A program made the position numbers and the translations under genes. From Bifidobacteriaceae bacterium (GTDB taxonomy: Bacteria > Actinomycetota > Actinomycetes > Actinomycetales > WQXJ01): a DNA stretch of 32,828 nt. A model generated the notes under the pieces. That model was not told the DNA's origin, did no database searches, and saw only the letters and a program-made list of their open reading frames with translations. The stretch lies in NCBI GenBank assembly GCA_031278675.1, contig JAITJY010000236.1, positions 1 to 32,828 on the forward strand, given 5' to 3'. Below are positions 1 to 8,935 of this stretch, piece by piece; within the stretch, counting starts at the first letter, position 1; the number at the start of each line of letters is the position of its first letter.

Positions 1-52
1 AGCTCAATGCCGAGGTCACGGACGTAGGTAGCCCAGTCGTCGCTCCTCGCAT
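1..52 (-). CDS. 5' end (17 codons) of a leftward gene that runs out of the window; product unknown
   Basis: ATG at 52-50 on the minus strand, preceded by GAAAGGTG (SD-like) a few nt upstream. The frame stays open to the window edge. Too short to assign. Confidence 0.25.
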   Translation of the reverse strand, partial: MRGATTGLPTSVTSALS

Positions 53-71
53 CTGGCACCTTTCAAGGCTG

Positions 72-111
72 CGCCTGACCGGTCTTGCATCACGCCTGAC
101 CGGTCTGGCAT
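72..111. promoter_or_regulatory. Tandem operator-like direct repeat, two copies of CGCCTGACCGGTCT(T/G)GCAT 21 bp apart, each with the palindrome GACCGGTC
   Basis: Copies at 72-90 and 93-111 differ at one base. The 21-bp register equals two helical turns. It lies 20-60 bp upstream of the leftward ATG at 52. Confidence 0.35.
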
Positions 112-299
112 AGTTGGACGGTAGTCACATCCCCCGGCTTGTCGCGAGCCCTCGACCCAGGAGGCCAGCGTGGTGTCCGCTTTCACGTCACCCCGAGCGC
201 TGTTCAGCGCTGGCGGTCAGGGTTGCGTTCCAGCAGGCCCGAATGAGCTTGCGTCGTCCGACATCATTCCCAGCCGTCCGCATGGTAAACGTAAAGTGC

Positions 300-328
300 T
301 TGCAAAGCGCGGGCAATCTTGCGATAAT
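300..328 (+). promoter_or_regulatory. Sigma70-like promoter, TTGCAA - 17 nt - GATAAT
   Basis: -35 TTGCAA at 300-305, 17-nt spacer at 306-322, -10 GATAAT at 323-328. The predicted TSS at about 334-336 coincides with the 5' arm of the long helix described below. Confidence 0.45.
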
Positions 329-334
329 GGAGAT

Positions 335-460
335 TGTCTAGATCGTCGGTACAAGTACCCGCTCTTGGCGCAATACCTGGTAACAGGCAGCCGCCACAGT
401 AGGTGTTGCAAAGCGCTTACCGATGATCTAGACAGTCAGGTGGCTGTCTGTTTTTGTTTT
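335..460 (+). ncRNA. Candidate structured leader / riboswitch-like attenuator (or ~125-nt sRNA) upstream of tRNA-His and hisS-like
   Basis: A 15-bp helix pairs 335-349 (TGTCTAGATCGTCGG) with 420-434 (CCGATGATCTAGACA): 14 Watson-Crick pairs plus one G-U. It encloses about 70 nt that include a CCUG-GUAA-CAGG GNRA hairpin (376-387) and a 5-bp helix 367-371/413-417. The 3' arm overlaps the 5' arm of the terminator hairpin at 429-450. Confidence 0.4.
429..460 (+). terminator. Rho-independent terminator
   Basis: Stem TAGACAGTC / GGCTGTCTG (429-437 with 442-450, 7 Watson-Crick pairs plus 2 G-U) and loop AGGT, followed by TTTTTGTTTT (451-460). Confidence 0.6.
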
Positions 461-501
461 CTCCACTTGGATCGATTCTTTCAACGGGTCCGCGTGGCGT
501 G

Positions 502-576
502 GGCCGGGGTAGCTCAATGGTAGAGCATCCGACTGTGGATCGGAGAGCGCGGGTTCGATTCCCGTCCCTGGCACCA
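502..576 (+). tRNA. tRNA-His (anticodon GTG), atypical: A73 discriminator, genomic G at -1, encoded CCA
   Basis: Hand-folded cloverleaf. Acceptor GCCGGGG (503-509) pairs with CCCTGGC (566-572). D arm is GCTC/GAGC. Anticodon stem is TCCGA/TCGGA with loop CTGTGGA (anticodon 535-537 GTG). T arm is GCGGG-TTCGATT-CCCGT. Position 573 is A, then CCA at 574-576. G502 sits at -1 opposite A73. Confidence 0.88.
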
Positions 577-608
577 ACTAAGGAGGAACGCTGTGATAAG
601 GATACGAT

Positions 609-2090
609 ATGACAACTAAACTGGCCTCACCTACGCCGCTCAGAGGGTTTCAAGATCTTCTGCCTGCCGATATGTCGCTCAGAAATGAAGTCACGCGGAG
701 AATCGCCGGTGTTTACCAGGCTTACGGGTACCTCCCTCTAGACACTCCAATAGCAGAGCGCCTCACCACATTAAAGGGAGCGGGCGGCGACGAAACCGAC
801 GCGCTAATCTTCACCCTACAAACCCCGGAAGGACAAAAGATTGGTCTGAGATTCGATCTGACTGTTCCTTTCGCTAGGATAGTGGCGAACTACCACCCTC
901 ATAGAATCAAGCTGCCCTTCCGCCGGTACCACGTCGGACCTGTATTCAGAGCTGATGCACCTCAACCCGAGCAAGGACGATACCGTCAATTCACGCAATT
1001 CGATATCGATGTAGCCGGCAGTGAGGATGTCTCGGCCGACGCAGAGATCGTTGCTGTGATGTGCGACGCCATGGCATCGCTGACACTGTCTCCTTCGAGC
1101 GATCCCGAGGAACCAGGCTACTTCATCCGGATCAACAGCAGAAAGCTCGTTGACGCTGCATTGGCCGGGCTCGGACTCACAGAGCGCCACGTTGTTCATC
1201 ACGTACTGCGAGTCCTGGATAAGCTCGATAAGCTTCCTGAAGACGAGGTTCTCAAAGAGCTTCAAACTGGCCGGGTCGACTCGTCTGGAGCATTCGTGGA
1301 TGGTCTCGGGTTAGAGGAGGGAACTGCCACCGCCCTTCTTCGGTTTGTCAAAATTCGGGGTTGGGGACGAAGAGATACCCTAGCCCAACTAGAAGCGAAT
1401 CTCCCAAATACTAGCGCTTCGGCAGAGGCGGTAAACGAGATGAGCCTCCTACTGGACCACCTAGATGCGCTTGGGGTTGAGGAGCATGCTGTACTGCTTG
1501 ACGCAAGCCTTGCCAGGGGTCTTGAGTACTACACGGGTATCGTTTACGAAGGCACTCTTAGCGGCTCGGGTGTAGGGTCAGTCATCGGCGGCGGTCGGTA
1601 CGACGGACTAGTCAGCCGATTTAGTAACGAACGAATCCCCGCCGTCGGCGCATCGATTGGACTGGACAGGCTGGTGGCCGGGCTTAGAACGCTAAATATC
1701 CCAATCGTCGAATCCGGCCAGGCAGCAGTGACGCTAGTCCTAGCCACGGATCCCGCGCTTCAGATTGAGGCGAGCCGCGTTGCCGGTGAGCTGCGTCGAA
1801 GCGGAATTCCGACGGAACTCTATACCGGGGAAGCCATTGGAAAACTGGCCAAAGCGTTGCGCTATGCGAACTCGCGGGGCTTCTCCGTCACTGTCGTTGT
1901 TGGACCGGACGAACTCGCAGGGGGGTACGTTTCCGTAAAAGATCTCAGCCGTGGCAAAGAAGAGAGGGCGCAGATATCGGCGCGCGAGACGTATCGAGCG
2001 GCGGGAAGGGTTGGTCAGCACCAAGTCAACCGTGAGGACATGCCTCGCGCTGTAATGAACATAATTAAAGGGGTGCCAAGTGACGAATAA
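609..2090 (+). CDS. hisS: Histidyl-tRNA synthetase, full length with anticodon-binding domain; eukaryote/archaea-like sequence signatures
   Basis: Class II HisRS motifs: LRFDLTVPFARIVA; motif 2 RRYHVGPVFRADAPQPEQGRYRQFTQFDIDVAG; LARGLEYYTGIVYEG; motif 3 GGGRYDGLVSRF...PAVGASIGLDRL. C-terminal anticodon-binding-like region is VTLVLA...RYANSRGFSVTVVVGPDELAGGYVSVKDL. The VLDKLDKLPEDEV segment resembles the DKLDK..EEV segment of eukaryotic HisRS. Weak SD AAGGA at 598-602. Confidence 0.9.
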   Translation: MTTKLASPTPLRGFQDLLPADMSLRNEVTRRIAGVYQAYGYLPLDTPIAERLTTLKGAGGDETDALIFTLQTPEGQKIGLRFDLTVPFARIVANYHPHRIKLPFRRYHVGPVFRADAPQPEQGRYRQFTQFDIDVAGSEDVSADAEIVAVMCDAMASLTLSPSSDPEEPGYFIRINSRKLVDAALAGLGLTERHVVHHVLRVLDKLDKLPEDEVLKELQTGRVDSSGAFVDGLGLEEGTATALLRFVKIRGWGRRDTLAQLEANLPNTSASAEAVNEMSLLLDHLDALGVEEHAVLLDASLARGLEYYTGIVYEGTLSGSGVGSVIGGGRYDGLVSRFSNERIPAVGASIGLDRLVAGLRTLNIPIVESGQAAVTLVLATDPALQIEASRVAGELRRSGIPTELYTGEAIGKLAKALRYANSRGFSVTVVVGPDELAGGYVSVKDLSRGKEERAQISARETYRAAGRVGQHQVNREDMPRAVMNIIKGVPSDE

Positions 2091-2922
2091 AGTGGAACGC
2101 CACCCAACTACGTTGCTCATTTCTGCGGCGGGCGGCAATGCCACTGCTATCGCGGCAATTGACAGCCCTCTTTCGCGGACTGAATACGCGGCACGGGGAA
2201 GCCGTTTGCTCTCAAGTTTGCAAGGCGACGGAGCCGAGCAGGCGGGGTTCTTCCTGCCGAGTTCCGCTCACTTAGAAATGGCTGGTGCGGAATTCTGCGG
2301 CAACGCTACGCGGGCTGCCTTCGTAGCCCGTGAGATTCTCGGCGGAGACCGACGGGAGCGCATCACGGTTTCGGGTTACGAAGGCTCCGTCCTTGGGGCC
2401 GCACAACCTTCTTCTTGCGACCAGTGCGGCTCAACGTGCCAGTGCGGGCGCCATTTCATTGCGTGGTGCGCGTTTGAGCGCATGCAAATTCGCACGCAGG
2501 ACTGCGTATGGAGCCGAGGGCGCGGTACTCTTGTCGACCTTGGTGGAATCGTCCACTTCGTGACGTGGGACCTTTGGCCGACCGAAAGCTCCGAGGTTAG
2601 AGCTTACCATGAGGCCTTCAGGGACGAGATGGATCTCCAGAATCGAGACGCCGTCGGGCTAGTGCGGCTTCGAGAGATTCGAACGGCACTCGGCGCTCCC
2701 GCAGATGGCTTGCTCGGCATTTTTCCCATAGTTTGGGTGCGAGCAATTGACAGCTTCTTCTTTGAGACCTCGTGTGGCTCAGGCTCAATTGCCGCTGCAG
2801 TCGTCGCTGGCAGCGGACCAGTTGTCCAGCCGTCGAACGGCGTGATTGACGTCCGAGTCGAAGGACCATTCGTCCGGCTGGAGAGCGAGATGGAGGTATT
2901 GATGTGCACTTCGAACGGCTAA
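2080..2922 (+). CDS. DapF-fold (PLP-independent, two-cysteine) amino-acid epimerase/racemase-like protein with a Cys-rich insert
   Basis: N-terminal GGNAT (compare DapF GNDF). EMAGAEFCGNATRA (Cys73) resembles the DapF xMCGNGxRC motif. GGIVHFV resembles GNPHxV. ETSCGSGSIAAA (Cys232) resembles DapF ETLACGTGA. GTG start with AAAGGGG SD. Overlaps the hisS stop by 11 nt. Confidence 0.7.
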   Translation: MTNKVERHPTTLLISAAGGNATAIAAIDSPLSRTEYAARGSRLLSSLQGDGAEQAGFFLPSSAHLEMAGAEFCGNATRAAFVAREILGGDRRERITVSGYEGSVLGAAQPSSCDQCGSTCQCGRHFIAWCAFERMQIRTQDCVWSRGRGTLVDLGGIVHFVTWDLWPTESSEVRAYHEAFRDEMDLQNRDAVGLVRLREIRTALGAPADGLLGIFPIVWVRAIDSFFFETSCGSGSIAAAVVAGSGPVVQPSNGVIDVRVEGPFVRLESEMEVLMCTSNG

Positions 2923-3536
2923 TTGCTTCAAGCACTAGTGCCTCCGACATCCAAGACTTCGTCGCCGCCTACCGGGATGCTTTTGGCGGCGCACCCTACT
3001 TTGAGACGTATAGCGACGAATACATTCGGGATGAGGTACTGATCCCGCATCTCGAGAATGGACTAGTAGTGGTCGCCCGGGACAATGGCCACGTAGTTGG
3101 ATTTGGCTGTACGGTACCGGTCTATTCGTCGCCCCCTGATGTCATGGAATATATCAAAAAGCTTTCAACAGAGCCAGGCCTCCCATCCGATCTGGCACTC
3201 GAGCGGACATGGTACATGTCGGAACTGGGCACGGTAACCACTTATCGCCTGCGGGGCGTAGCGTATCAGGTGGTGCGTAGCAGGCTGATTTCAGTTTCTC
3301 ATATGGGCGGGCTGTTCTACTTCATGCGAACGGCAAAGGAAGGCTCCAATTCGCGGCACCTTTACGCGCGAATCGGCGCGCTGCCAATTGGTCAGCCTCA
3401 GAACGTTGGCGGTCTGAGAGTAACGAAAGATTCCTCCTCAAGAAGCTTAGAGCGCCAGTACATGTACGGTCGCGTAAGTGATGGGCTAGAGGCTGTACTG
3501 GGCAGGATTCGCGAAAGCGCAGACACGTCGTGCTGA
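2904..3536 (+). CDS. GNAT-family acyl-CoA N-acyltransferase
   Basis: YMSELGTVTTYRLRGVAYQVV contains the R-x-x-G-x-A pyrophosphate-binding loop of GNAT motif A, and the beta-strand pattern VVVARDNGHVVGFG lies upstream. GTG start 7 nt after GGAGG. Overlaps the upstream gene by 19 nt. Confidence 0.7.
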   Translation: MHFERLIASSTSASDIQDFVAAYRDAFGGAPYFETYSDEYIRDEVLIPHLENGLVVVARDNGHVVGFGCTVPVYSSPPDVMEYIKKLSTEPGLPSDLALERTWYMSELGTVTTYRLRGVAYQVVRSRLISVSHMGGLFYFMRTAKEGSNSRHLYARIGALPIGQPQNVGGLRVTKDSSSRSLERQYMYGRVSDGLEAVLGRIRESADTSC

Positions 3537-3596
3537 GACTGCGCGTGGCCGACGGCGCATTGGTCAGGAATTTCAAAGAATTATAGGGAATATAAT

Positions 3597-4124
3597 ATGA
3601 AGCAATATCAAATTGCCGTTATCGGTTCAGCCGGTTCAGAGGAGTATCCTTACGACAAGCCGCTGGCAGCTATGTTTGAAGCTGCTGAAAAAATCGGCCA
3701 ACTACTGGCTGTTAACAAGCTAATCGTGGTTTGTGGTGGCAAGGGCGGCGTGATGGAAGCCGTCAGTCGGGGTGCTAAATCAGCTGGAGGTATAACCGTA
3801 GCCGAAATTGCCGGCTTAAGCCGATGGGCTGCAAACGACTACATTGATGTCGAAATTGTGACTGGCGACCTGGCGTTTCGTGGGCCATCGCAACTTATCG
3901 CTATGTCAGATGCCGTTATTGCGTTAGGCGGCGGTAGCGGAACTTTACAGGAAATTTGTGTGGCGTATCGCCTCCAGAAACCAATAATTTTGCTAAGAGG
4001 TTTTGGCGGTTGGGTCGATAAACTATCACCAGTGAGTTTCTTGGACGAAAGGCGGCTAGTAAAATTTTACCAAGCGACAACGCCTGAAAATGCAGTCCAA
4101 AAAGCATTAAGTATGTTGAAATAG
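3597..4124 (+). CDS. LOG/SLOG-superfamily Rossmann protein (TIGR00725-like; possible nucleotide phosphoribohydrolase or nucleotide sensor)
   Basis: CGGKGGVMEAVSRGA (GGxxGxM motif) and LGGGSGTLQE (PGGxGTxxE-type motif) are the LOG-family signatures. Size is 175 aa. AGGGA SD lies 7 nt upstream. Confidence 0.75.
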   Translation: MKQYQIAVIGSAGSEEYPYDKPLAAMFEAAEKIGQLLAVNKLIVVCGGKGGVMEAVSRGAKSAGGITVAEIAGLSRWAANDYIDVEIVTGDLAFRGPSQLIAMSDAVIALGGGSGTLQEICVAYRLQKPIILLRGFGGWVDKLSPVSFLDERRLVKFYQATTPENAVQKALSMLK

Positions 4125-4194
4125 GAATCAATATGAATCTAAGTTTATCACGCATCGAAACAACAGCTTCAATCGTCAACGTTCTAATCGTCGA

Positions 4195-4794
4195 CTGTCG
4201 ATTGAGGTAGAGGCTGCCAGCTTAGATAAATCAGCCGGTAGTATGACTCTGGTTGACGACTTGGCAGTTTCTGGCCGGACTATCGAGGTCGCCAGGAGAA
4301 CACTAACAACTTCTGGCCAAACCATCGGCACTGTTGGACTGGGTTTACTCTTTAATAGCAACAGATGTCAAAGGCTAATCGGCGTAGACGACACGCGTCC
4401 GGTGGTAGTTTATTCACGCGAGGGCGGAAGTTATCCACCTATCAACCCTATCGACACGCTTGCTGGTAATGCCGGGATTTTAGAAGGCCTAACCGAACGG
4501 TATTTTCAACCAACCCAGCCAATTTTCGAGGCGGTCCCCCTAGAGAAGGTTGTCGCCTTTGATTCGAACATCGACTTCATCGTAGCGGGCAGACTGATTG
4601 TAGAACACCGCCCATTCCCGATCGCCAAAGGAAAAATGCCACCACTCCCCGTAAAAAGGAGCAAATCCCTCGTCGACCAACAAGTCATGCAGAAGTATGC
4701 GGTTCGCCCGCGCTCCTTTCGACACTTGGGTGGAAAATGTTGGAATCTTGACGGGATTCGAGAAATCCGATATCCGAGTCCCCATTTGAAGTGA
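4195..4794 (+). pseudogene. Type I phosphoribosyltransferase-like ORF lacking the N-terminal half; probable remnant, boundaries uncertain
   Basis: The PRPP-binding motif MTLVDDLAVSGRTIEVA sits at the first ATG (4243). PRTase-like sequence (LSIEVEAASLDKSAGS) continues upstream in the same frame with no canonical start back to the stop at 4117-4119. The 3' 255 nt are antisense to the VanX-like gene. Confidence 0.35.
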
Positions 4795-5244
4795 CTGTCC
4801 GGCTTGAGAGACTAATGTCAAGTCGACCGCAGCACCAGCTGGATGTCCAGCAACTGAGGGTACAGCGGTGAAGGCGTGAGTAATGCGAATGAGCGCGGAT
4901 TCAGTGATGTACGGGTGAGCCTTGCGGAGCATTCGAAGTCTTTGATCGTAGTATTGGCGCTGGATATCCGGATGTCTGTAGCCATAGACTATGCAGAGTC
5001 TCAGGCCTCTTGCTTTAGCAGCTTGATTCACGAGAGAGAGCTTCTGCGCAACCGTTTCCCGGACAAGTATCGCGTTCCCGGTATAAGGCGTCATGTCCGT
5101 CTGGGTGTGCCGCGCTATGATGGTCGAGTCGAAGGTGCGGACGTCGAGGAGTGACTCGGCGCTTTGACCAGCGGGAACCGTAGCCAAATCGTCATACTCC
5201 AACACTCTCCGCGTAGTGAAGAATTCACTTGACAATCGCGCCAT
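4540..5244 (-). CDS. VanX/DdpX-like D-Ala-D-Ala dipeptidase (peptidase M15D)
   Basis: VAGHPAGAAVDLTL resembles the VanX S-x-H-x-x-G-x-A-x-D zinc/substrate motif. FYGEWWHFSF resembles the VanX EWWH motif about 30 aa from the C-terminus. AGGAGG SD lies 8 nt upstream of the ATG. Confidence 0.8.
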   Translation of the reverse strand: MARLSSEFFTTRRVLEYDDLATVPAGQSAESLLDVRTFDSTIIARHTQTDMTPYTGNAILVRETVAQKLSLVNQAAKARGLRLCIVYGYRHPDIQRQYYDQRLRMLRKAHPYITESALIRITHAFTAVPSVAGHPAGAAVDLTLVSQAGQSLQMGTRISDFSNPVKIPTFSTQVSKGARANRILLHDLLVDEGFAPFYGEWWHFSFGDREWAVFYNQSARYDEVDVRIKGDNLL

Positions 5245-5634
5245 GCAGCCAATTACCTCCTGTTAGTTCAATATTGCGACCAAGGAACGGAGGACTCCGC
5301 GGTACCATCCTTGTTCCGCAACGCATTCCTGCGCTGCGGCACTCTGTGCCAATCTATCAACAATTGATTTCGGCTGCTGCATTTACGGTTCGGCTTCCGG
5401 CGCGTATTTGGCGCGCAGCTCACCCTAGCGTGAATAGGGCTCAAACGCTTTGCTGCTATTGTGGCATACTTGTCTGCTCTCGTCAAGCGGCCGACAAGAC
5501 TCAACTTTACGTTGCTCGCACCATAGTCACCTAATGTGATCGCGAAACGGCGTGCTTGCCTCACTTGGGGGTGGTCGCGAAACGCCGCGGTCGCTGGCGC
5601 TTGGCGGGCTTCGCCGGGTGTTCGCTGGCTGGAC

Positions 5635-5826
5635 ATGGCGAAGGGCCTGGACATGGTGACGAAGCGTGGGTTGACGAAGGCCTACGCGGCTGACTACGGA
5701 CGTGCGTCGAAGACGGATAAGGGGCGGATGCTCGAGGAGTTGACGGCGGCTGCGGGCTGGTCGCGGGTGAACGCGCGTCGCGCGAGCAGGCGGGCGTCTG
5801 AGCGGCGCGGGCGGCGTCGGTGGTGA
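5635..5826 (+). mobile_element. N-terminal fragment (~63 aa) of a transposase (HTH region only); IS remnant
   Basis: MVTKRGLTKAYAADYGRASKTDKGRMLEELTAAAGWSRVNARRA resembles the N-terminal HTH segment of actinobacterial DDE transposases, from memory. The ORF stops long before any catalytic domain. Confidence 0.4.
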
Positions 5827-5867
5827 GCCACTTAGCCTGAGATAGGCGCTCGTAGGAGCCAAGAGAT

Positions 5868-5955
5868 TGAGGGGGCGTCCATGCTTGACGCTCCGCTGAA
5901 TCTTGCGCTCAATCATTCGGTGCTTACCAAACTGTCGATACGCGGAGACTATGGG
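5868..5955 (-). mobile_element. Possible C-terminal fragment of an IS5-family transposase
   Basis: The minus-strand frame reads YRQFGKHRMIERKIQRSVKHGR, which resembles the IS5-family Y(K/R)xRxxIERxFxxLKxxR C-terminal motif. There is no intact ORF context. Confidence 0.25.
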
Positions 5956-6030
5956 CATATGCGCAGGACGCGGTGCCACCATCGTGCAAGTAGGGGAGTA
6001 GAAGACTACGCGCTCATAGGGGTCTCAGAG

Positions 6031-6666
6031 TCACAGCGCCGCATATCCCGTCGTCCTCCCACTACCAACTCGGTGAATCAACCCATCCCCCACCAGCCGG
6101 TCAACGTCCATCTTGACCGTGCTGTAGTTGATGCCAGTTGCCTGAGAAATCTCCAACCTGCTGGCCCGCCCCTGCTGGCGAATGACGGCAAGCACGCCAG
6201 CTTGCCGCTGGGCGCGAGCATCGACACTGAGTTGTTTGGCCGACGCTTGGTGCTCGGCGTACTCGTCCGGCATAGCGCGGCGTAGCAGGTTGGAGATGGC
6301 TGCGCGGCTGACCCCATACCGCTGGGCGATGCTGGCTTGCGAGTCGCCCTGTCTGAATAGGCGCTCAATCTCGCGTAGCTGGTCATCGTCCAGCTTGCAC
6401 AGTGACTGCGGCCTGATCGTCACACCAGCCTTGCGAAGATGGGAGGCAACAGTGTCAGGCGATGAGCCGATAACCTCGGCCACTGCCGTTAGCGACTGGC
6501 CGCCCTCGTACATGGCGGCGGCCCGAGCGACGTCATCGTCGGTCCAGACCTTGGCCAACGGTCGCCACGTTCGCTCCGATGGTCCTGGGTCAGGCCGTTG
6601 ATCTGCGGCTTTGCTGATTTTCTGAAATAGGCGGAGTACGTGAGCCTGGTTTGAGTAGGCTCGCAC
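6031..6666 (-). CDS. Multi-HTH DNA-binding protein (three predicted HTH/winged-helix modules)
   Basis: Three HTH-like segments: GQSLTAVAEVIGSSPDTVASHLRKAG, GDSQASIAQRYGVSRAAISNLLRRA and SRLEISQATGINYSTVKMDVDRLVGDGLI. Confidence 0.6.
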   Translation of the reverse strand: MRAYSNQAHVLRLFQKISKAADQRPDPGPSERTWRPLAKVWTDDDVARAAAMYEGGQSLTAVAEVIGSSPDTVASHLRKAGVTIRPQSLCKLDDDQLREIERLFRQGDSQASIAQRYGVSRAAISNLLRRAMPDEYAEHQASAKQLSVDARAQRQAGVLAVIRQQGRASRLEISQATGINYSTVKMDVDRLVGDGLIHRVGSGRTTGYAAL

Positions 6667-6806: not shown

Positions 6807-8363
6807 CTAAGACCCACCCGCCGGGACACTGCCCGGCAACAGGACGCGGGCGATCCGGTTGCGCACGCCATCCGGGATGCGGCGCCAGGCCCGCTTCGCC
6901 AACGGCGGACGCGATCTGACCGGTTTGGCGAGGCTTAAGAACAGGGCCGACCAGCGCTCGGCGAGACGTTCCTCGGAGAACTCCGTCATGCGGGCCGCCG
7001 CGTTGGCTGACATGGCGCGCTTCGCCGAGGCAGGCGAGTCGAGATACTCGATAATCCGGCGTGCCAACTCGGCCTGATTGCCGGGCTCAACCAGGTGGCC
7101 GTTGACCCCGTCTAGGATCATCGCCGCCGGACCGTATTTTGTGTCATAAGCGATGCACGGCGTCCCGGCCGCCATCGACTCCATGATGGTCAGCGAAAAC
7201 CCCTCCCAGCGTGAGGTCAACAAAGAGCATTCGGCGGTCCCGAAGACCGCCCTCGCACTGTTGGTGTAACCAGCGAAGTTGACCGCCTCAGCGAGGTTCA
7301 AAGACCCGGCGAACGCCTTCAAATCGCTCTCCAAGGGGCCGTGGCCCCAGACCTCGAGCTGCGCGTCGGGACGCGCCTGGCGCACAGCGCCCAATGCGGC
7401 GATCGCCGAGGCCACATTCTTTTCTTCGCTCAGCCGCGCCACCATCACCAGTTTCCCCGGGACGGTGTCCGGCGCCGGCGGCGCCGGCGTAATGGCATGC
7501 GGTATTACATGAAGACGATCCTCAAATCCGAACCGGTCCACCACGTCAGCCTTTTGTTGCGGCGTCAGCACCACCAACGCGTCAACCCCGGGCAGATTGT
7601 TCAACACCGCCCGGTTCCCGGTCCGGATAACCGACGATCCGGGCCGCTCATGAATCGAATGGAACACAAAAATCTTCCGGGCCAACCGGTTCTCCAGTGA
7701 CAGCAACACCCCGTCAAGCGCCCGCGCCTCACACACCAGATACGTCAATTCGCCCGCGCTCAGCTCGGCCATAAAATGCCGCCTGAAGCCGTCCAGCGTC
7801 CGAAAGGCCCGCGCCGCGCCGGTCAGCGGCGCCAACACCACCTCCGCCTTCGGATACGGTCCACCCGGCGGCGCCGCTCCCACCGGGCGGTACTGGAAGA
7901 CCGACCCATCCGGCCTGCACCACAAGCGCCCCACCGCCCGGCCAGCCACCGTGATGGTCGCCGCATAGGGCGCACCGCTTGGATCATGGACCTCCCGGAC
8001 CTCATAAGTTGGCAGGTCACGGCACAGTTCGGTGATCGCCTCGGCCACCTTGGGCGCACCTGGCGCCGCCGCCGCGCCCCGGTAATAGTGGTTGATGTTG
8101 ACCAGGCCAACCCCACACGGCAGGTCATAGCGTTCACGCACCGCAGCCGCGACTTCACCGAAGCCTGCGGCGTCGTGAAAGGTCGCGATCACCGGATAGA
8201 TTCCCCGCAAGCGAGCCAGCACCCCCGCCTTGCGCAGCAGTGAGGCGGTCAAGCCGCCGTGTTCGGCGTCCAAGCGGCTCGTCAAAAAGACATAACGCAA
8301 CGCGATCCCCCGCAATCTCGTAGCAAAGTGGTAGCCAGTGGGCTGTCCAGCCCATGCTAACAA
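6807..8363 (-). CDS. GT4-family glycosyltransferase (TagE-like size)
   Basis: C-terminal GT-B signature ...LLTSRWEGFSLTIMESMAAGTPCIAYDTKYGPAAMILDGVNGHLVE (E-x7-E motif). Confidence 0.85.
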   Translation of the reverse strand: MLAWAGQPTGYHFATRLRGIALRYVFLTSRLDAEHGGLTASLLRKAGVLARLRGIYPVIATFHDAAGFGEVAAAVRERYDLPCGVGLVNINHYYRGAAAAPGAPKVAEAITELCRDLPTYEVREVHDPSGAPYAATITVAGRAVGRLWCRPDGSVFQYRPVGAAPPGGPYPKAEVVLAPLTGAARAFRTLDGFRRHFMAELSAGELTYLVCEARALDGVLLSLENRLARKIFVFHSIHERPGSSVIRTGNRAVLNNLPGVDALVVLTPQQKADVVDRFGFEDRLHVIPHAITPAPPAPDTVPGKLVMVARLSEEKNVASAIAALGAVRQARPDAQLEVWGHGPLESDLKAFAGSLNLAEAVNFAGYTNSARAVFGTAECSLLTSRWEGFSLTIMESMAAGTPCIAYDTKYGPAAMILDGVNGHLVEPGNQAELARRIIEYLDSPASAKRAMSANAAARMTEFSEERLAERWSALFLSLAKPVRSRPPLAKRAWRRIPDGVRNRIARVLLPGSVPAGGS

Positions 8364-8377
8364 TCCCGCCCGAATGG

Positions 8378-8935
8378 TTAGTCATCCGTTGCACGATGCC
8401 GCGTGGCCAGCACCGCCGCCACCACCAGCGCATCGCCCGGCAAGTCCACCACCCCACCCTGCGGCTCGCTACGGCGATCATCGGTGGATCCGGGCTTCGC
8501 CCACACGCGCTCCACCCAGCCCCCCCGCACCAGGCAGTCGACCGCCTCAGCTACCACCCATTGCCCGATCACGCCCGCCCCCACGGTCCCGCCCGCCCAG
8601 ATTGCCCGGCGCACCGGGTGAGCCCCGCCTACCAGCGTCAGGTCCCGTTCGGCGAGGAAGCGGACGAGCGGGACGAGGCGGCATCGTCCTTGGGCGAAAA
8701 CCCAACGGCCCTCGACGTCAACCTCCACCACCTGGTCGAGCCGGCGCCGGTCCAACTGCGCCAAGACCGCCCGGATCGAGGGGACCCCGGGAGACGGATC
8801 GTCCGGGCCGGAGCGATATTCCGCCCGGCCCGCCCCGTAAAGCGAAGTCACCAACTGGCCGACAGCCGCCGTGTGGTAAAGGTGGCCAACCAAGCGCGCC
8901 GCCTCCCGGTGCCCCGCCCGCCCGAACAAGCTCAC
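8378..8935 (-). CDS. Hypothetical protein
   Basis: This is the most protein-like composition among several overlapping high-GC ORFs. GTG start with AAGGTGG SD. The 3' end runs into a partial MITE copy. No motif recognised. Confidence 0.45.
   Translation of the reverse strand: MSLFGRAGHREAARLVGHLYHTAAVGQLVTSLYGAGRAEYRSGPDDPSPGVPSIRAVLAQLDRRRLDQVVEVDVEGRWVFAQGRCRLVPLVRFLAERDLTLVGGAHPVRRAIWAGGTVGAGVIGQWVVAEAVDCLVRGGWVERVWAKPGSTDDRRSEPQGGVVDLPGDALVVAAVLATRHRATDD
8415..8497. repeat. Partial copy (one terminus plus about 80 bp) of the 159-bp MITE-like element
   Basis: ...CTGCGGCTCGCTACGGCGATCATCGGTGGATCCGGGCT aligns with the reverse complement of the copy A left end, ...GCCGCTGGCTACGGCCATCATCGGTGGATCCAGGCT. 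Confidence 0.5.

Follow-up and report, generated by a model that had tools for sequence, protein, structure and literature searches.

A73 tRNA-His gene and divergent histidyl-tRNA synthetase gene in a probably horizontally acquired histidine module near the replication origin of a Bifidobacteriaceae bacterium

Few tRNA identity marks are as universal as the guanosine at position -1 (G-1) of tRNA-His. In the canonical tRNA the G-1:C73 pair shifts RNase P cleavage, and eukaryotic tRNA-His carries A73 and receives its G-1 from Thg1. A G-1-less tRNA-His together with a divergent histidyl-tRNA synthetase (HisRS) was reportedly described in the alphaproteobacterial RRCH group by Ardell and Andersson in 2006 and by Wang in 2007. 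The tRNA-His identity of Caulobacter crescentus resides in the anticodon, U72 and A73, and added G-1 slightly harms charging (PMC3064791, Yuan et al. 2011); the E. coli HisRS suffers a >100-fold loss without G-1, and the Caulobacter HisRS a 250-fold loss on E. coli tRNA-His (PMC3064791). Papers published up to 2023 restrict bacterial G-1-less tRNA-His to the alphaproteobacterial clade as a unique event (PMC3937112, PMC3245924, PMC9976931), a 2022 review of aminoacyl-tRNA synthetase duplication contains no duplicated HisRS besides HisZ (PMC9437257), and Mukai et al. reported A73/U73 G-1-less tRNA-His with 8/4 structure in alphaproteobacterial phages only (PMC5389517). Here we analyzed a 32,828-nt stretch of an uncultured actinobacterium, a Bifidobacteriaceae bacterium (contig JAITJY010000236.1 of assembly GCA_031278675.1, hereafter the window), and read its positions 300–5490 as a horizontally acquired accessory histidine module near the replication origin (oriC). 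The core of this module would be a co-oriented, probably co-transcribed pair of a G-1-less-type tRNA-His and its cognate divergent HisRS, a reading to which we assign a probability of about 0.7. The core consists of the following features:

502, + strand: genomic G at position -1, mismatched with A573 and not conserved in the family
503–576, + strand: tRNA-His gene (anticodon GUG), called by ARAGORN and matched over its full length by the Rfam tRNA model (73 bits)
609–2090, + strand: HisRS gene (hisS) coding for 493 aa, above the TIGR00442 cutoff, with an 8-residue motif-2 loop (ADAPQPEQ), an HGTP anticodon-binding domain and a ~40-aa C-terminal extension

An earlier note, made from the sequence of the window, had placed A at the discriminator position 573 and stated that the G at 502 could not pair with it, and both statements held. 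ARAGORN called tRNA-His(GTG) at 503–576, and 503–573 aligned with the full length of the Rfam tRNA covariance model (73 bits). A573 fell in its discriminator column, which gives the window tRNA the A73 of the Caulobacter/RRCH identity set. The base at -1 was G opposite A573, a mismatch, so the encoded G-1:C73 pair and 8-bp acceptor stem of canonical bacterial tRNA-His are absent. The acceptor stem was formed by G503-C572, C504-G571, C505-G570, G506-U569, G507-C568, G508-C567 and G509-C566 with a single G:U pair, and the CCA end was encoded in the genome at 574–576. The 1:72 pair was G503:C572, in place of the G1:U72 of the Caulobacter/RRCH set, and the D-loop was the 7-nt AAUGGUA, in place of the 9-nt loop with U20a of that set.

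Positions -1, 1:72 and 73 were then read in 71 tRNA-His genes located upstream of related HisRS genes, 28 of them from the closest clade (window included) and 43 from a wider clade. Nearly all 71 tRNAs carried G1:U72, A73 was present in 60/71, and G occupied position -1 in 8/71. In the closest clade, position 73 was A in 28/28, the 1:72 pair was G:U in 23/28, G:C in 4/28 (the window and loci L090–L092) and A:U in 1/28, and position -1 was A in 17, T in 5, G in 4 and C in 2 tRNAs. The wider clade showed G1:U72 in 41/43 tRNAs, G at -1 in 4/43, and discriminators distributed among A (32), U (9), G (1) and C (1); longer D-loops were found only in the more distant of these lineages, the KPGPGR clade named after its HisRS loop. 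As a control, the tRNA-His genes adjoining a different, shorter, canonical-type HisRS in the same data contained G-1 and G1:C72 in 5/5 cases, with C73 in three and U73 in two of them. The conserved signature of the family is G1:U72, mostly A73, and no G-1, matching the Caulobacter crescentus/RRCH identity set. This result divided the "eukaryote/alphaproteobacterial-style" identity set of the earlier note: the alphaproteobacterial part was supported, and the eukaryote-style part, with an unpaired G-1 either kept or attached opposite A73, was not, because G at -1 was not conserved in the family (8/71) as opposed to 5/5 next to the canonical-type HisRS. Since only 8/71 family tRNAs carry G at -1, G502 of the window looks incidental and would most simply be a chance base.

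Tandem duplicates of tRNA-His with the same G1:U72 acceptor stem were observed upstream of hisS at L125:1416-1626 (position 73 G and A), L131:1109-1319 (U and C) and L144:2836-3021 (U and U). The differing discriminators of such copies suggest that recognition in that clade depends little on position 73. At L058:7860-7933, in a metagenome-assembled genome (MAG) of Pseudomonadota J06613_1 (JBCBFK010000005.1), ARAGORN called a 'tRNA-Stop' with anticodon UUA immediately upstream of hisS, and the matching position of a Hyphomonadaceae genome (L078:7861-7934) contained tRNA-Gln(UUG). The UUA tRNA of this alphaproteobacterial MAG could be an ochre suppressor derived from tRNA-Gln.

The hisS gene follows closely downstream of the tRNA gene: a Shine-Dalgarno sequence AGGAGG lies at 581–586, 5 nt past the CCA end, and the open reading frame (ORF) starts 33 nt past that end. 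The protein scored 331.6 bits with the NCBIfam hisS equivalog TIGR00442 (cutoff 286.75) and 185 bits with the hisZ model (cutoff 271.65), and it possesses an anticodon-binding domain, which together separate it from HisZ. Both PF13393 and PF03129 matched in Pfam, and the class II HisRS motifs were complete, HisA/HisB included; RGLEYYTG and GGGRYDGLV were both present. The motif-2 region reads PVFR-ADAPQPEQ-GRYRQF, where FR and GRY enclose 8 residues, as many as in the human motif-2 YRRDNPAMTRGRYREF (YR-RDNPAMTR-GRYREF). In a PDB sequence search, human cytoplasmic HisRS matched over its full length at E = 8e-55, with further motifs LRYDLTVPFAR, VDKLDK, SLARGLDYYTGVIYE and GVGSVAAGGRYDGLV in the alignment, whereas the E. 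coli and Thermus enzymes matched at about 1e-30 to 1e-33 in two fragments each, and the S. aureus enzyme was likewise much weaker and in two pieces. These alignments agreed with the earlier note in its claims of a human-length 8-residue loop and of motifs shared with eukaryote-type enzymes, and the search, together with the tree described below, in its claim that the enzyme stands outside the ordinary bacterial HisRS. An 8-codon mini-ORF (GTG ATA AGG ATA CGA TAT GAC AAC TAA) was observed at 593–619 on the + strand, starting 6 nt past AGGAGG and overlapping the hisS ATG at 609 out of frame; the database gene call for hisS starts 21 codons downstream of 609. The mini-ORF could serve translational coupling, or hisS could start elsewhere.

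A search of 5.8 billion protein clusters returned closest relatives of only 52–56% identity, which came from Kineosporia species, a Pseudonocardiaceae MAG and many soil/peat metagenome contigs. The 8-residue loop with the consensus DDPQPEQGRF (PQPEQGR) was specific to this closest HisRS clade. A 6-residue loop, xKPGPGRF, characterized the wider tRNA-linked clade as well as the alphaproteobacterial enzymes, and the PQR-type loop was kept in other bacterial "eukaryote-like" HisRS (spirochaetes, planctomycetes and others). In a neighbor-joining tree of 474 trimmed columns, which was rooted on the shorter HisRS type and contained no eukaryotic or canonical bacterial outgroups, the 8-residue-loop clade and its union with the metagenomic KPGPGR clade each received 100% bootstrap support. 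A supergroup adding the alphaproteobacterial RRCH, the Acidobacteria and some Planctomycetes enzymes received 85%, with the PQR-type enzymes outside. The island HisRS falls within this RRCH supergroup, but with the loop variant ADAPQPEQGR of 8 residues that keeps Gln, as compared to the RRCH KPGPGR with Gly for Gln.

The linkage of the two genes extends across the family. Each fetched locus of the closest HisRS proteins had a co-oriented tRNA-His right in front of the HisRS gene, and of the related loci with upstream room nearly all had a co-oriented tRNA-His 18–200 nt ahead of it. A metagenome scan with a clade-specific motif added 76 further loci of the tRNA-His-hisS arrangement, and the same arrangement was found in two Acidobacteria loci (L007 and L008) among the matches listed from a genome collection. 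The suggestion in the earlier note that the synthetase and its non-canonical A73 tRNA-His travel together was thus borne out. A third gene often completes the unit: short-form hisG, consisting of a TIGR00070 catalytic domain and an uncharacterized ~130-aa extension, immediately followed hisS in 19/19 close loci with sufficient downstream sequence. In the relatives this hisG was sometimes fused to an EgtD-like methyltransferase or HAD phosphatase, and hisC, hisD or a HAL-like lyase sometimes followed. The gene order was hisG, tRNA-His, hisS in the KPGPGR clade, and the alphaproteobacterial loci showed hisG ~1.1 kb downstream from hisS. In the loci inspected at gene level, hisS and hisG were not accompanied by any hisZ homolog, and the family HisRS might double as a HisZ-like partner of short-form HisG. 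The module appears to belong to a widespread, previously little-noticed family of tRNA-His/hisS units, a sister lineage of the alphaproteobacterial G-1-less system.

Two types of HisRS can coexist in one genome. The metagenome contigs L159 (6830-12375) and L160 contained two HisRS genes 3–6 kb apart, one of 512 aa with an 8-residue PTQPEQGRY loop and the other of 429 aa adjoining a tRNA-His with G-1 and G1:C72, and a SLOG/TIGR00725 gene and a short-form hisG lay between the two; similar layouts occurred in L156, L157, L162 and L163. In Kineosporia, a Pnkp/Hen1 RNA-repair gene pair adjoined the tRNA-His/hisS/hisG unit (L001:11139-15166, L085:12696-16768, L088:13784-17901), which may be coincidental synteny. 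Viral contigs contained neither a HisRS relative nor the family tRNA pattern, leaving phage carriage unsupported, and a plasmid search returned only alphaproteobacterial chromid hisS of 34–38% identity among the best 15 of 106 records.

Among the systems described before, the alphaproteobacterial RRCH/Caulobacter pair is the one to which the window pair is closest, sharing A73, the lack of a family-conserved G at -1, and G1:U72 in most family members. The enzymes are also alike in length (~490–500 aa) and C-terminal extension, in their common 85% supergroup, and, in the relatives of the window, in the linkage of hisS to short-form hisG. There are differences as well: the present family occurs in Actinobacteria and soil/peat metagenomes with the tRNA gene physically fused to the hisS operon, the HisRS is only 33–37% identical to the alphaproteobacterial enzymes, and the window pair belongs to an accessory island as opposed to the sole housekeeping pair of RRCH. 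Its loop is PQPEQGR (8 residues) rather than KPGPGR, and its tRNA contains C72 and the 7-nt D-loop without U20a. By these comparisons, the system would work like a Caulobacter-type pair but is not a clean RRCH member, which the C72, the short D-loop and the 8-residue loop speak against. With the eukaryotic cytoplasmic pair it shares A73, the 8-residue motif-2 loop and full-length similarity (human E = 8e-55); unlike that pair, it showed no Thg1 among the ORFs inspected and no conserved encoded G-1, its CCA is encoded, and the nearest HisRS relatives are bacterial. It also resembles hisS-hisZ-hisG operons in that, in the relatives, a HisRS-family gene lies directly beside short-form hisG, but it differs from them by a full HisRS with anticodon-binding domain and by a window without hisG. 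An extra HisRS gene, hisRS2, reportedly lies among the histidine-handling genes of the histidine decarboxylase (hdc) cluster in lactobacilli, a context similar to the present one; the hdc-cluster HisRS is canonical-type and is not known to come with a dedicated non-canonical tRNA.

The remaining part of the window is an actinobacterial origin region coding for parB, parA, yidC, dnaA, dnaN, recF, gyrB, gyrA and tRNA-Ile, with the module located a few kb from parB. GyrB was 89–95% identical to more than 10 entries named "MAG: Bifidobacteriaceae bacterium" and ~75% identical to Cellulomonas, in line with the actinobacterial host proposed in the earlier note. Several observations pointed to an insertion. 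The GC content was 49–59% over positions 1–6000 as compared to 60–70% in the rest of the window, and the following feature marks the inner edge of the low-GC island:

6031–6666, - strand: helix-turn-helix (HTH)-only ORF of transposase/regulator type (HTH_38; weak IS630-/IS21-like matches)

Synteny with relatives resumed only from ~8378, and in three relatives the 10 kb beyond parB contained neither island genes nor a tRNA-His. In the database, which includes more than 10 close relatives (GyrB 89–95%), HisRS identity to the island enzyme did not exceed 56%. Because no closer HisRS was found among the close relatives' proteins in that database, the HisRS native to the lineage must be another protein, and the pair on the island would be a recent, strain-specific acquisition. 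Of the four lines of evidence for insertion (low GC, HTH/transposase-like ORF, synteny break, absence of a close HisRS), this last one is the most telling, and low GC, the transposase-like neighbor and the missing ortholog in the relatives together upheld the accessory nature of the pair that had been proposed. A sister-strain contig (GyrB 95%) was rearranged next to gidB and ended too early to inform on the island site.

Other observations concern the borders of the island. A GT4 glycosyltransferase gene at 6807–8363 (- strand; best NCBIfam match SdgA/SdgB, with a Pfam 'GT4-conflict' match too) separates the island from the stretch where synteny with relatives holds, and the relatives examined do not share it. 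The low-GC segment is bracketed by short direct repeats CTGACCGGTYTKGC (three copies, at 72–111 and 6916–6929) and by a 28-nt imperfect inverted repeat (185–212 / 6942–6969). These repeats could mark the ends of the island, but their length is small and one set falls within the glycosyltransferase ORF; chance may account for them. PADLOC defence-system models gave no match to the island genes.

A mechanism can be proposed for the tRNA and its synthetase. Because G502 cannot pair with A573, RNase P would be expected to cut at +1 and produce a mature tRNA without G-1. By homology to the Caulobacter pair, the island HisRS would charge its own tRNA through the anticodon and the 72/73 region rather than G-1 (PMC3064791). 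The pair would thereby be largely insulated from the host's canonical G-1:C73 tRNA-His and HisRS, and the analogy with the Caulobacter pair makes such orthogonality plausible (PMC3064791).

A regulatory element that may read this tRNA was found on the opposite strand, upstream of a peptidase gene:

5458–5486, - strand: promoter-like site (TTGACG, 17-nt spacer, TG-CACAAT) just upstream of the T-box-like leader
5280–5454, - strand: T-box-like leader of the M15 gene (Rfam RF00230, 42 bits, E = 6e-7 over 6 kb)
4540–5244, - strand: M15 (VanX-like) D,D-dipeptidase homolog (PF01427, 67 bits; Zn-binding and catalytic motifs intact)

T-box leaders pair the tRNA end with their bulge by the UGGN:NCCA rule, and a translational ileS-type T-box with ultrashort Stem I was reportedly described in Actinobacteria by Sherwood in 2015. 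The present leader contains an ultrashort Stem I hairpin at 5439–5423 (CCCUA-UUCACGC-UAGGG), whose 7-nt loop UUCACGC contains CAC at 5432–5430, and the base of Stem I is of the K-turn type (UGA...GAG). An F-box-like ACCGUAA and Stem III follow, and the T-box sequence AAGGAUGGUACCGCG at 5312–5298 has its UGGU bulge at 5307–5304 in a fold of helix A1, 7-nt bulge and helix A2 (AAGGA-UGGUACC-GCGGA...UCCGU-UCCUU). A UCCUCC tract in the leader could pair with the M15 Shine-Dalgarno AGGAGG at 5261–5256, and the leader ends 36 nt before the M15 start codon. A UGGN bulge beside helix A1, an F-box, a K-turn-type Stem I base and a position 5' of a gene were thus all found. The leader resembles the ileS-type T-boxes in the short Stem I with a specifier in the loop, the F-box-like element, Stem III, UGGN at the 5' edge of a 7-nt bulge and possible Shine-Dalgarno sequestration; unlike them, it precedes a VanX-like peptidase gene rather than an aminoacyl-tRNA synthetase gene, its probable specifier is the His codon CAC, and its score lies below the Rfam gathering score. 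Its layout fits the translational, ultrashort-Stem-I T-box class of Actinobacteria (PMC7583486).

The bulge UGGU is complementary to ACCA, the end of an A73 tRNA, and its U matches an unpaired A73 that canonical tRNA-His does not offer. Canonical tRNA-His has C73 paired with G-1, and TBDB accordingly ignores the discriminator when assigning His T-boxes. The CAC triplet is the probable specifier, being central in an anticodon-like 7-nt loop with U on its 5' side and a purine on its 3' side. The leader is likely to belong to histidine, as judged by this loop geometry and by its context. A context of histidine control is indicated because the tRNA-His/hisS pair has an M15 homolog as its neighbor in 12 related loci and because His-rich small ORFs occur at Kineosporia and Caulobacter-type loci. 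In Kineosporia, a His-rich small ORF with seven His codons lies ahead of the M15-tRNA-hisS-hisG unit (L001:6746-6880 and L085 ~8740-8890; the L088 homolog has only 2 His), and the Caulobacter-type loci L083 (~7790-7870) and L021 (~7720-7800) contain His-rich leader-peptide ORFs just ahead of hisS; examples are MGIFSASALTVVSAAVAVPTHLVHAHHGHARHGVHMPPVGAGSR and MTRDAHHHHAHHAIPRGTERVRAA. The scan for such leaders was very noisy in high-GC DNA, and only these four loci were kept, as candidate histidine attenuator leader peptides. The translational T-box-like leader is predicted to bind uncharged A73 tRNA-His, with UGGU pairing to ACCA and the loop displaying CAC, and would thereby switch on the dipeptidase when histidine charging falls. 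More speculatively, the dipeptidase and a racemase encoded next to hisS could salvage L-His from D-His-containing dipeptides.

The other genes and sites of the island are as follows:

300–328, + strand: promoter-like site (TTGCAA, 17-nt spacer, TG-GATAAT), candidate tRNA-His/hisS operon promoter from a consensus scan; the count was not above shuffle expectation, making the site weak alone
332–460, + strand: structured leader (fold z = -3.56) with a 20-nt inverted repeat, 332–351 / 418–437
2080–2922, + strand: amino-acid racemase of the CntK/HisR (DapF-fold) type, probably histidine racemase, its start overlapping the hisS stop (weak NCBIfam matches; CntK and HisR in the PDB)
2904–3536, + strand: GNAT-fold acetyltransferase-like protein (Pfam Acetyltransf_1, 22.1 bits, just over the cutoff)
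3597–4124, + strand: SLOG cluster-4/TIGR00725 (LOG-like) protein (Pfam/NCBIfam), with homologs adjoining HisRS/hisG genes in L003 and L159–L162

The racemase, GNAT and SLOG genes follow hisS with overlapping or closely spaced starts, and the M15 gene converges on them from the opposite strand. In the racemase, both catalytic Cys motifs (EFCGNAT and SCGSG) aligned to CntK in the PDB search, the NCBIfam matches to histidine racemase were far below the cutoffs (35 versus 400), and homologs were present in the related loci L004 and L096. The GNAT-like protein had no homolog in any related locus and no similarity to Fem or L/F-transferase families, and its single-sequence AlphaFold2 model was unusable (predicted local distance difference test score, pLDDT, of 34). 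Alignment of the M15 protein to VanX (1r44) showed conservation of HxxGxAxD and EWWH, with their H, D, E and H residues. Any role of the racemase-like, GNAT and SLOG genes in the module is putative. An ORF at 4243–4794 (+ strand) had no family matches, overlapped the M15 gene, and was rejected as spurious. Upstream of the tRNA gene, the 3' arm of the 20-nt repeat overlaps the 5' arm of a terminator-like hairpin (429–450) that precedes a T-run, making the two hairpins mutually exclusive, and each repeat arm contains the near-palindrome GTCTAGATC. An Rfam E-value search of 280–505 revealed no known RNA family upstream of the tRNA, and the 300–460 region could be a regulated leader, an operator-site pair or a small mobile element.

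A number of observations weigh against the proposed reading of the module. The presence of G502 means that a G-1-bearing mature tRNA species may exist, C72 replaces U72, a major determinant for the Caulobacter enzyme, the D-loop has 7 nt and not 9, and the 8-residue loop with its retained Gln differs from KPGPGR, so that the recognition mode may differ. The T-box-like match of 42 bits falls below the RF00230 gathering score of 93, probably owing to a 9-nt stretch that stands in place of 76 Stem I positions in the model; the specifier could also be ACG, CGC or UUC; and no copy of the T-box was found in L001, L003, L004, L099 or L114, nor by a motif scan of 165 sequences (the window and 164 loci), which leaves it without covariation. 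Motif matches in L114 and L115 were rejected as chance. The host's canonical hisS/tRNA-His was not seen directly in a contig of only 33 kb. Among close family members only the window has no hisG behind hisS, so that the island could be a fragment in decay, and the view that it is a non-functional remnant of a histidine module that lost hisG gains further from the adjoining HTH-only transposase-like ORF. We consider this the least credible of the alternatives, since all ORFs are intact with conserved catalytic motifs and the tRNA scores 73 bits with a perfect cloverleaf, and signs of selection are seen in the ribosome-binding sites, in start codons that overlap stop codons and in the matched T-box-like leader.

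The alternative we take most seriously, improbable as it is, is a housekeeping replacement in which this would be the strain's only tRNA-His/HisRS pair, the canonical one having been displaced as in the RRCH ancestor. It has a precedent in alphaproteobacteria, no canonical hisS/tRNA-His is visible in the 33 kb, and in L087 and some related loci the pair lies among hisC and hisD as in a primary histidine operon; the low GC with its HTH/transposase-like neighbor ORF and the lack of any ortholog above 56% identity, despite many close relatives (GyrB 89–95%) in the same database, speak against it. We hold it to be very improbable that the pair acts in the eukaryotic manner, with a functional unpaired G-1 opposite A73, kept from G502 or added by a Thg1-like enzyme, being read by the 8-residue loop. 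G502 is indeed present, the loop has the length of that in human HisRS, and the human enzyme is among the best PDB matches. However, tRNAs partnered with 8-residue-loop HisRS have G at -1 in 4/28 cases and A in 17/28, no Thg1-like gene was found among the annotated ORFs of the window or of the related loci inspected, bacterial RNase P is expected to cleave at +1 without a -1:73 pair, and the HisRS clade is sister to G-1-independent alphaproteobacterial enzymes in the neighbor-joining tree. We give similarly little credence to tRNA-dependent secondary metabolism, in which (D-/L-)His-tRNA would be used by a GNAT-fold aminoacyl-tRNA transferase, with D-His coming from the racemase and self-protection from the VanX-like peptidase. 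The set of a dedicated tRNA/synthetase pair, racemase, GNAT-fold and D,D-dipeptidase-like enzymes would suit it, as would the EgtD-like and HAL-like histidine-modifying enzymes of related loci. Against it, the GNAT protein is not conserved with the pair, has no homolog in related loci and is unlike the Fem or L/F-transferase families, T-box/His-leader control is a hallmark of amino-acid supply genes rather than biosynthetic clusters, and the conserved partner is hisG.

Beyond the acquired accessory module that we favor, a bolder version is conceivable and, in our judgment, doubtful. It takes the island as a self-contained second histidine-charging circuit, with an insulated pair, a T-box reading only the A73 tRNA, and a D,D-dipeptidase/racemase set scavenging D-histidine; it would further make tRNA-His/hisS/hisG modules mobile, with one transfer into the RRCH ancestor causing the alphaproteobacterial loss of G-1, and the HisRS also a HisZ-like partner of HisG.

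Relative to open-access papers to 2023, an accessory, tRNA-linked version of the G-1-less histidine system with an 8-residue loop, located in Actinobacteria and likely to have a matched T-box, appears to be new, and it may have been described earlier elsewhere. A system of the alphaproteobacterial kind, with a different loop variant, now appears in Actinobacteria (Kineosporia and the present MAG lineage), Acidobacteria and many soil/peat metagenome contigs. With the tRNA gene in physical linkage with hisS, and in most cases with hisG, the unit could move as one piece, and such linked units would offer a concrete candidate route for the alphaproteobacterial tRNA-His/HisRS swap. They would also provide genetic-code engineering in Gram-positive hosts with natural HisRS/tRNA-His pairs that are probably insulated from the host pair, and a T-box sensing a non-canonical tRNA-His would make the cross-talk of two histidine-charging systems in one cell testable.

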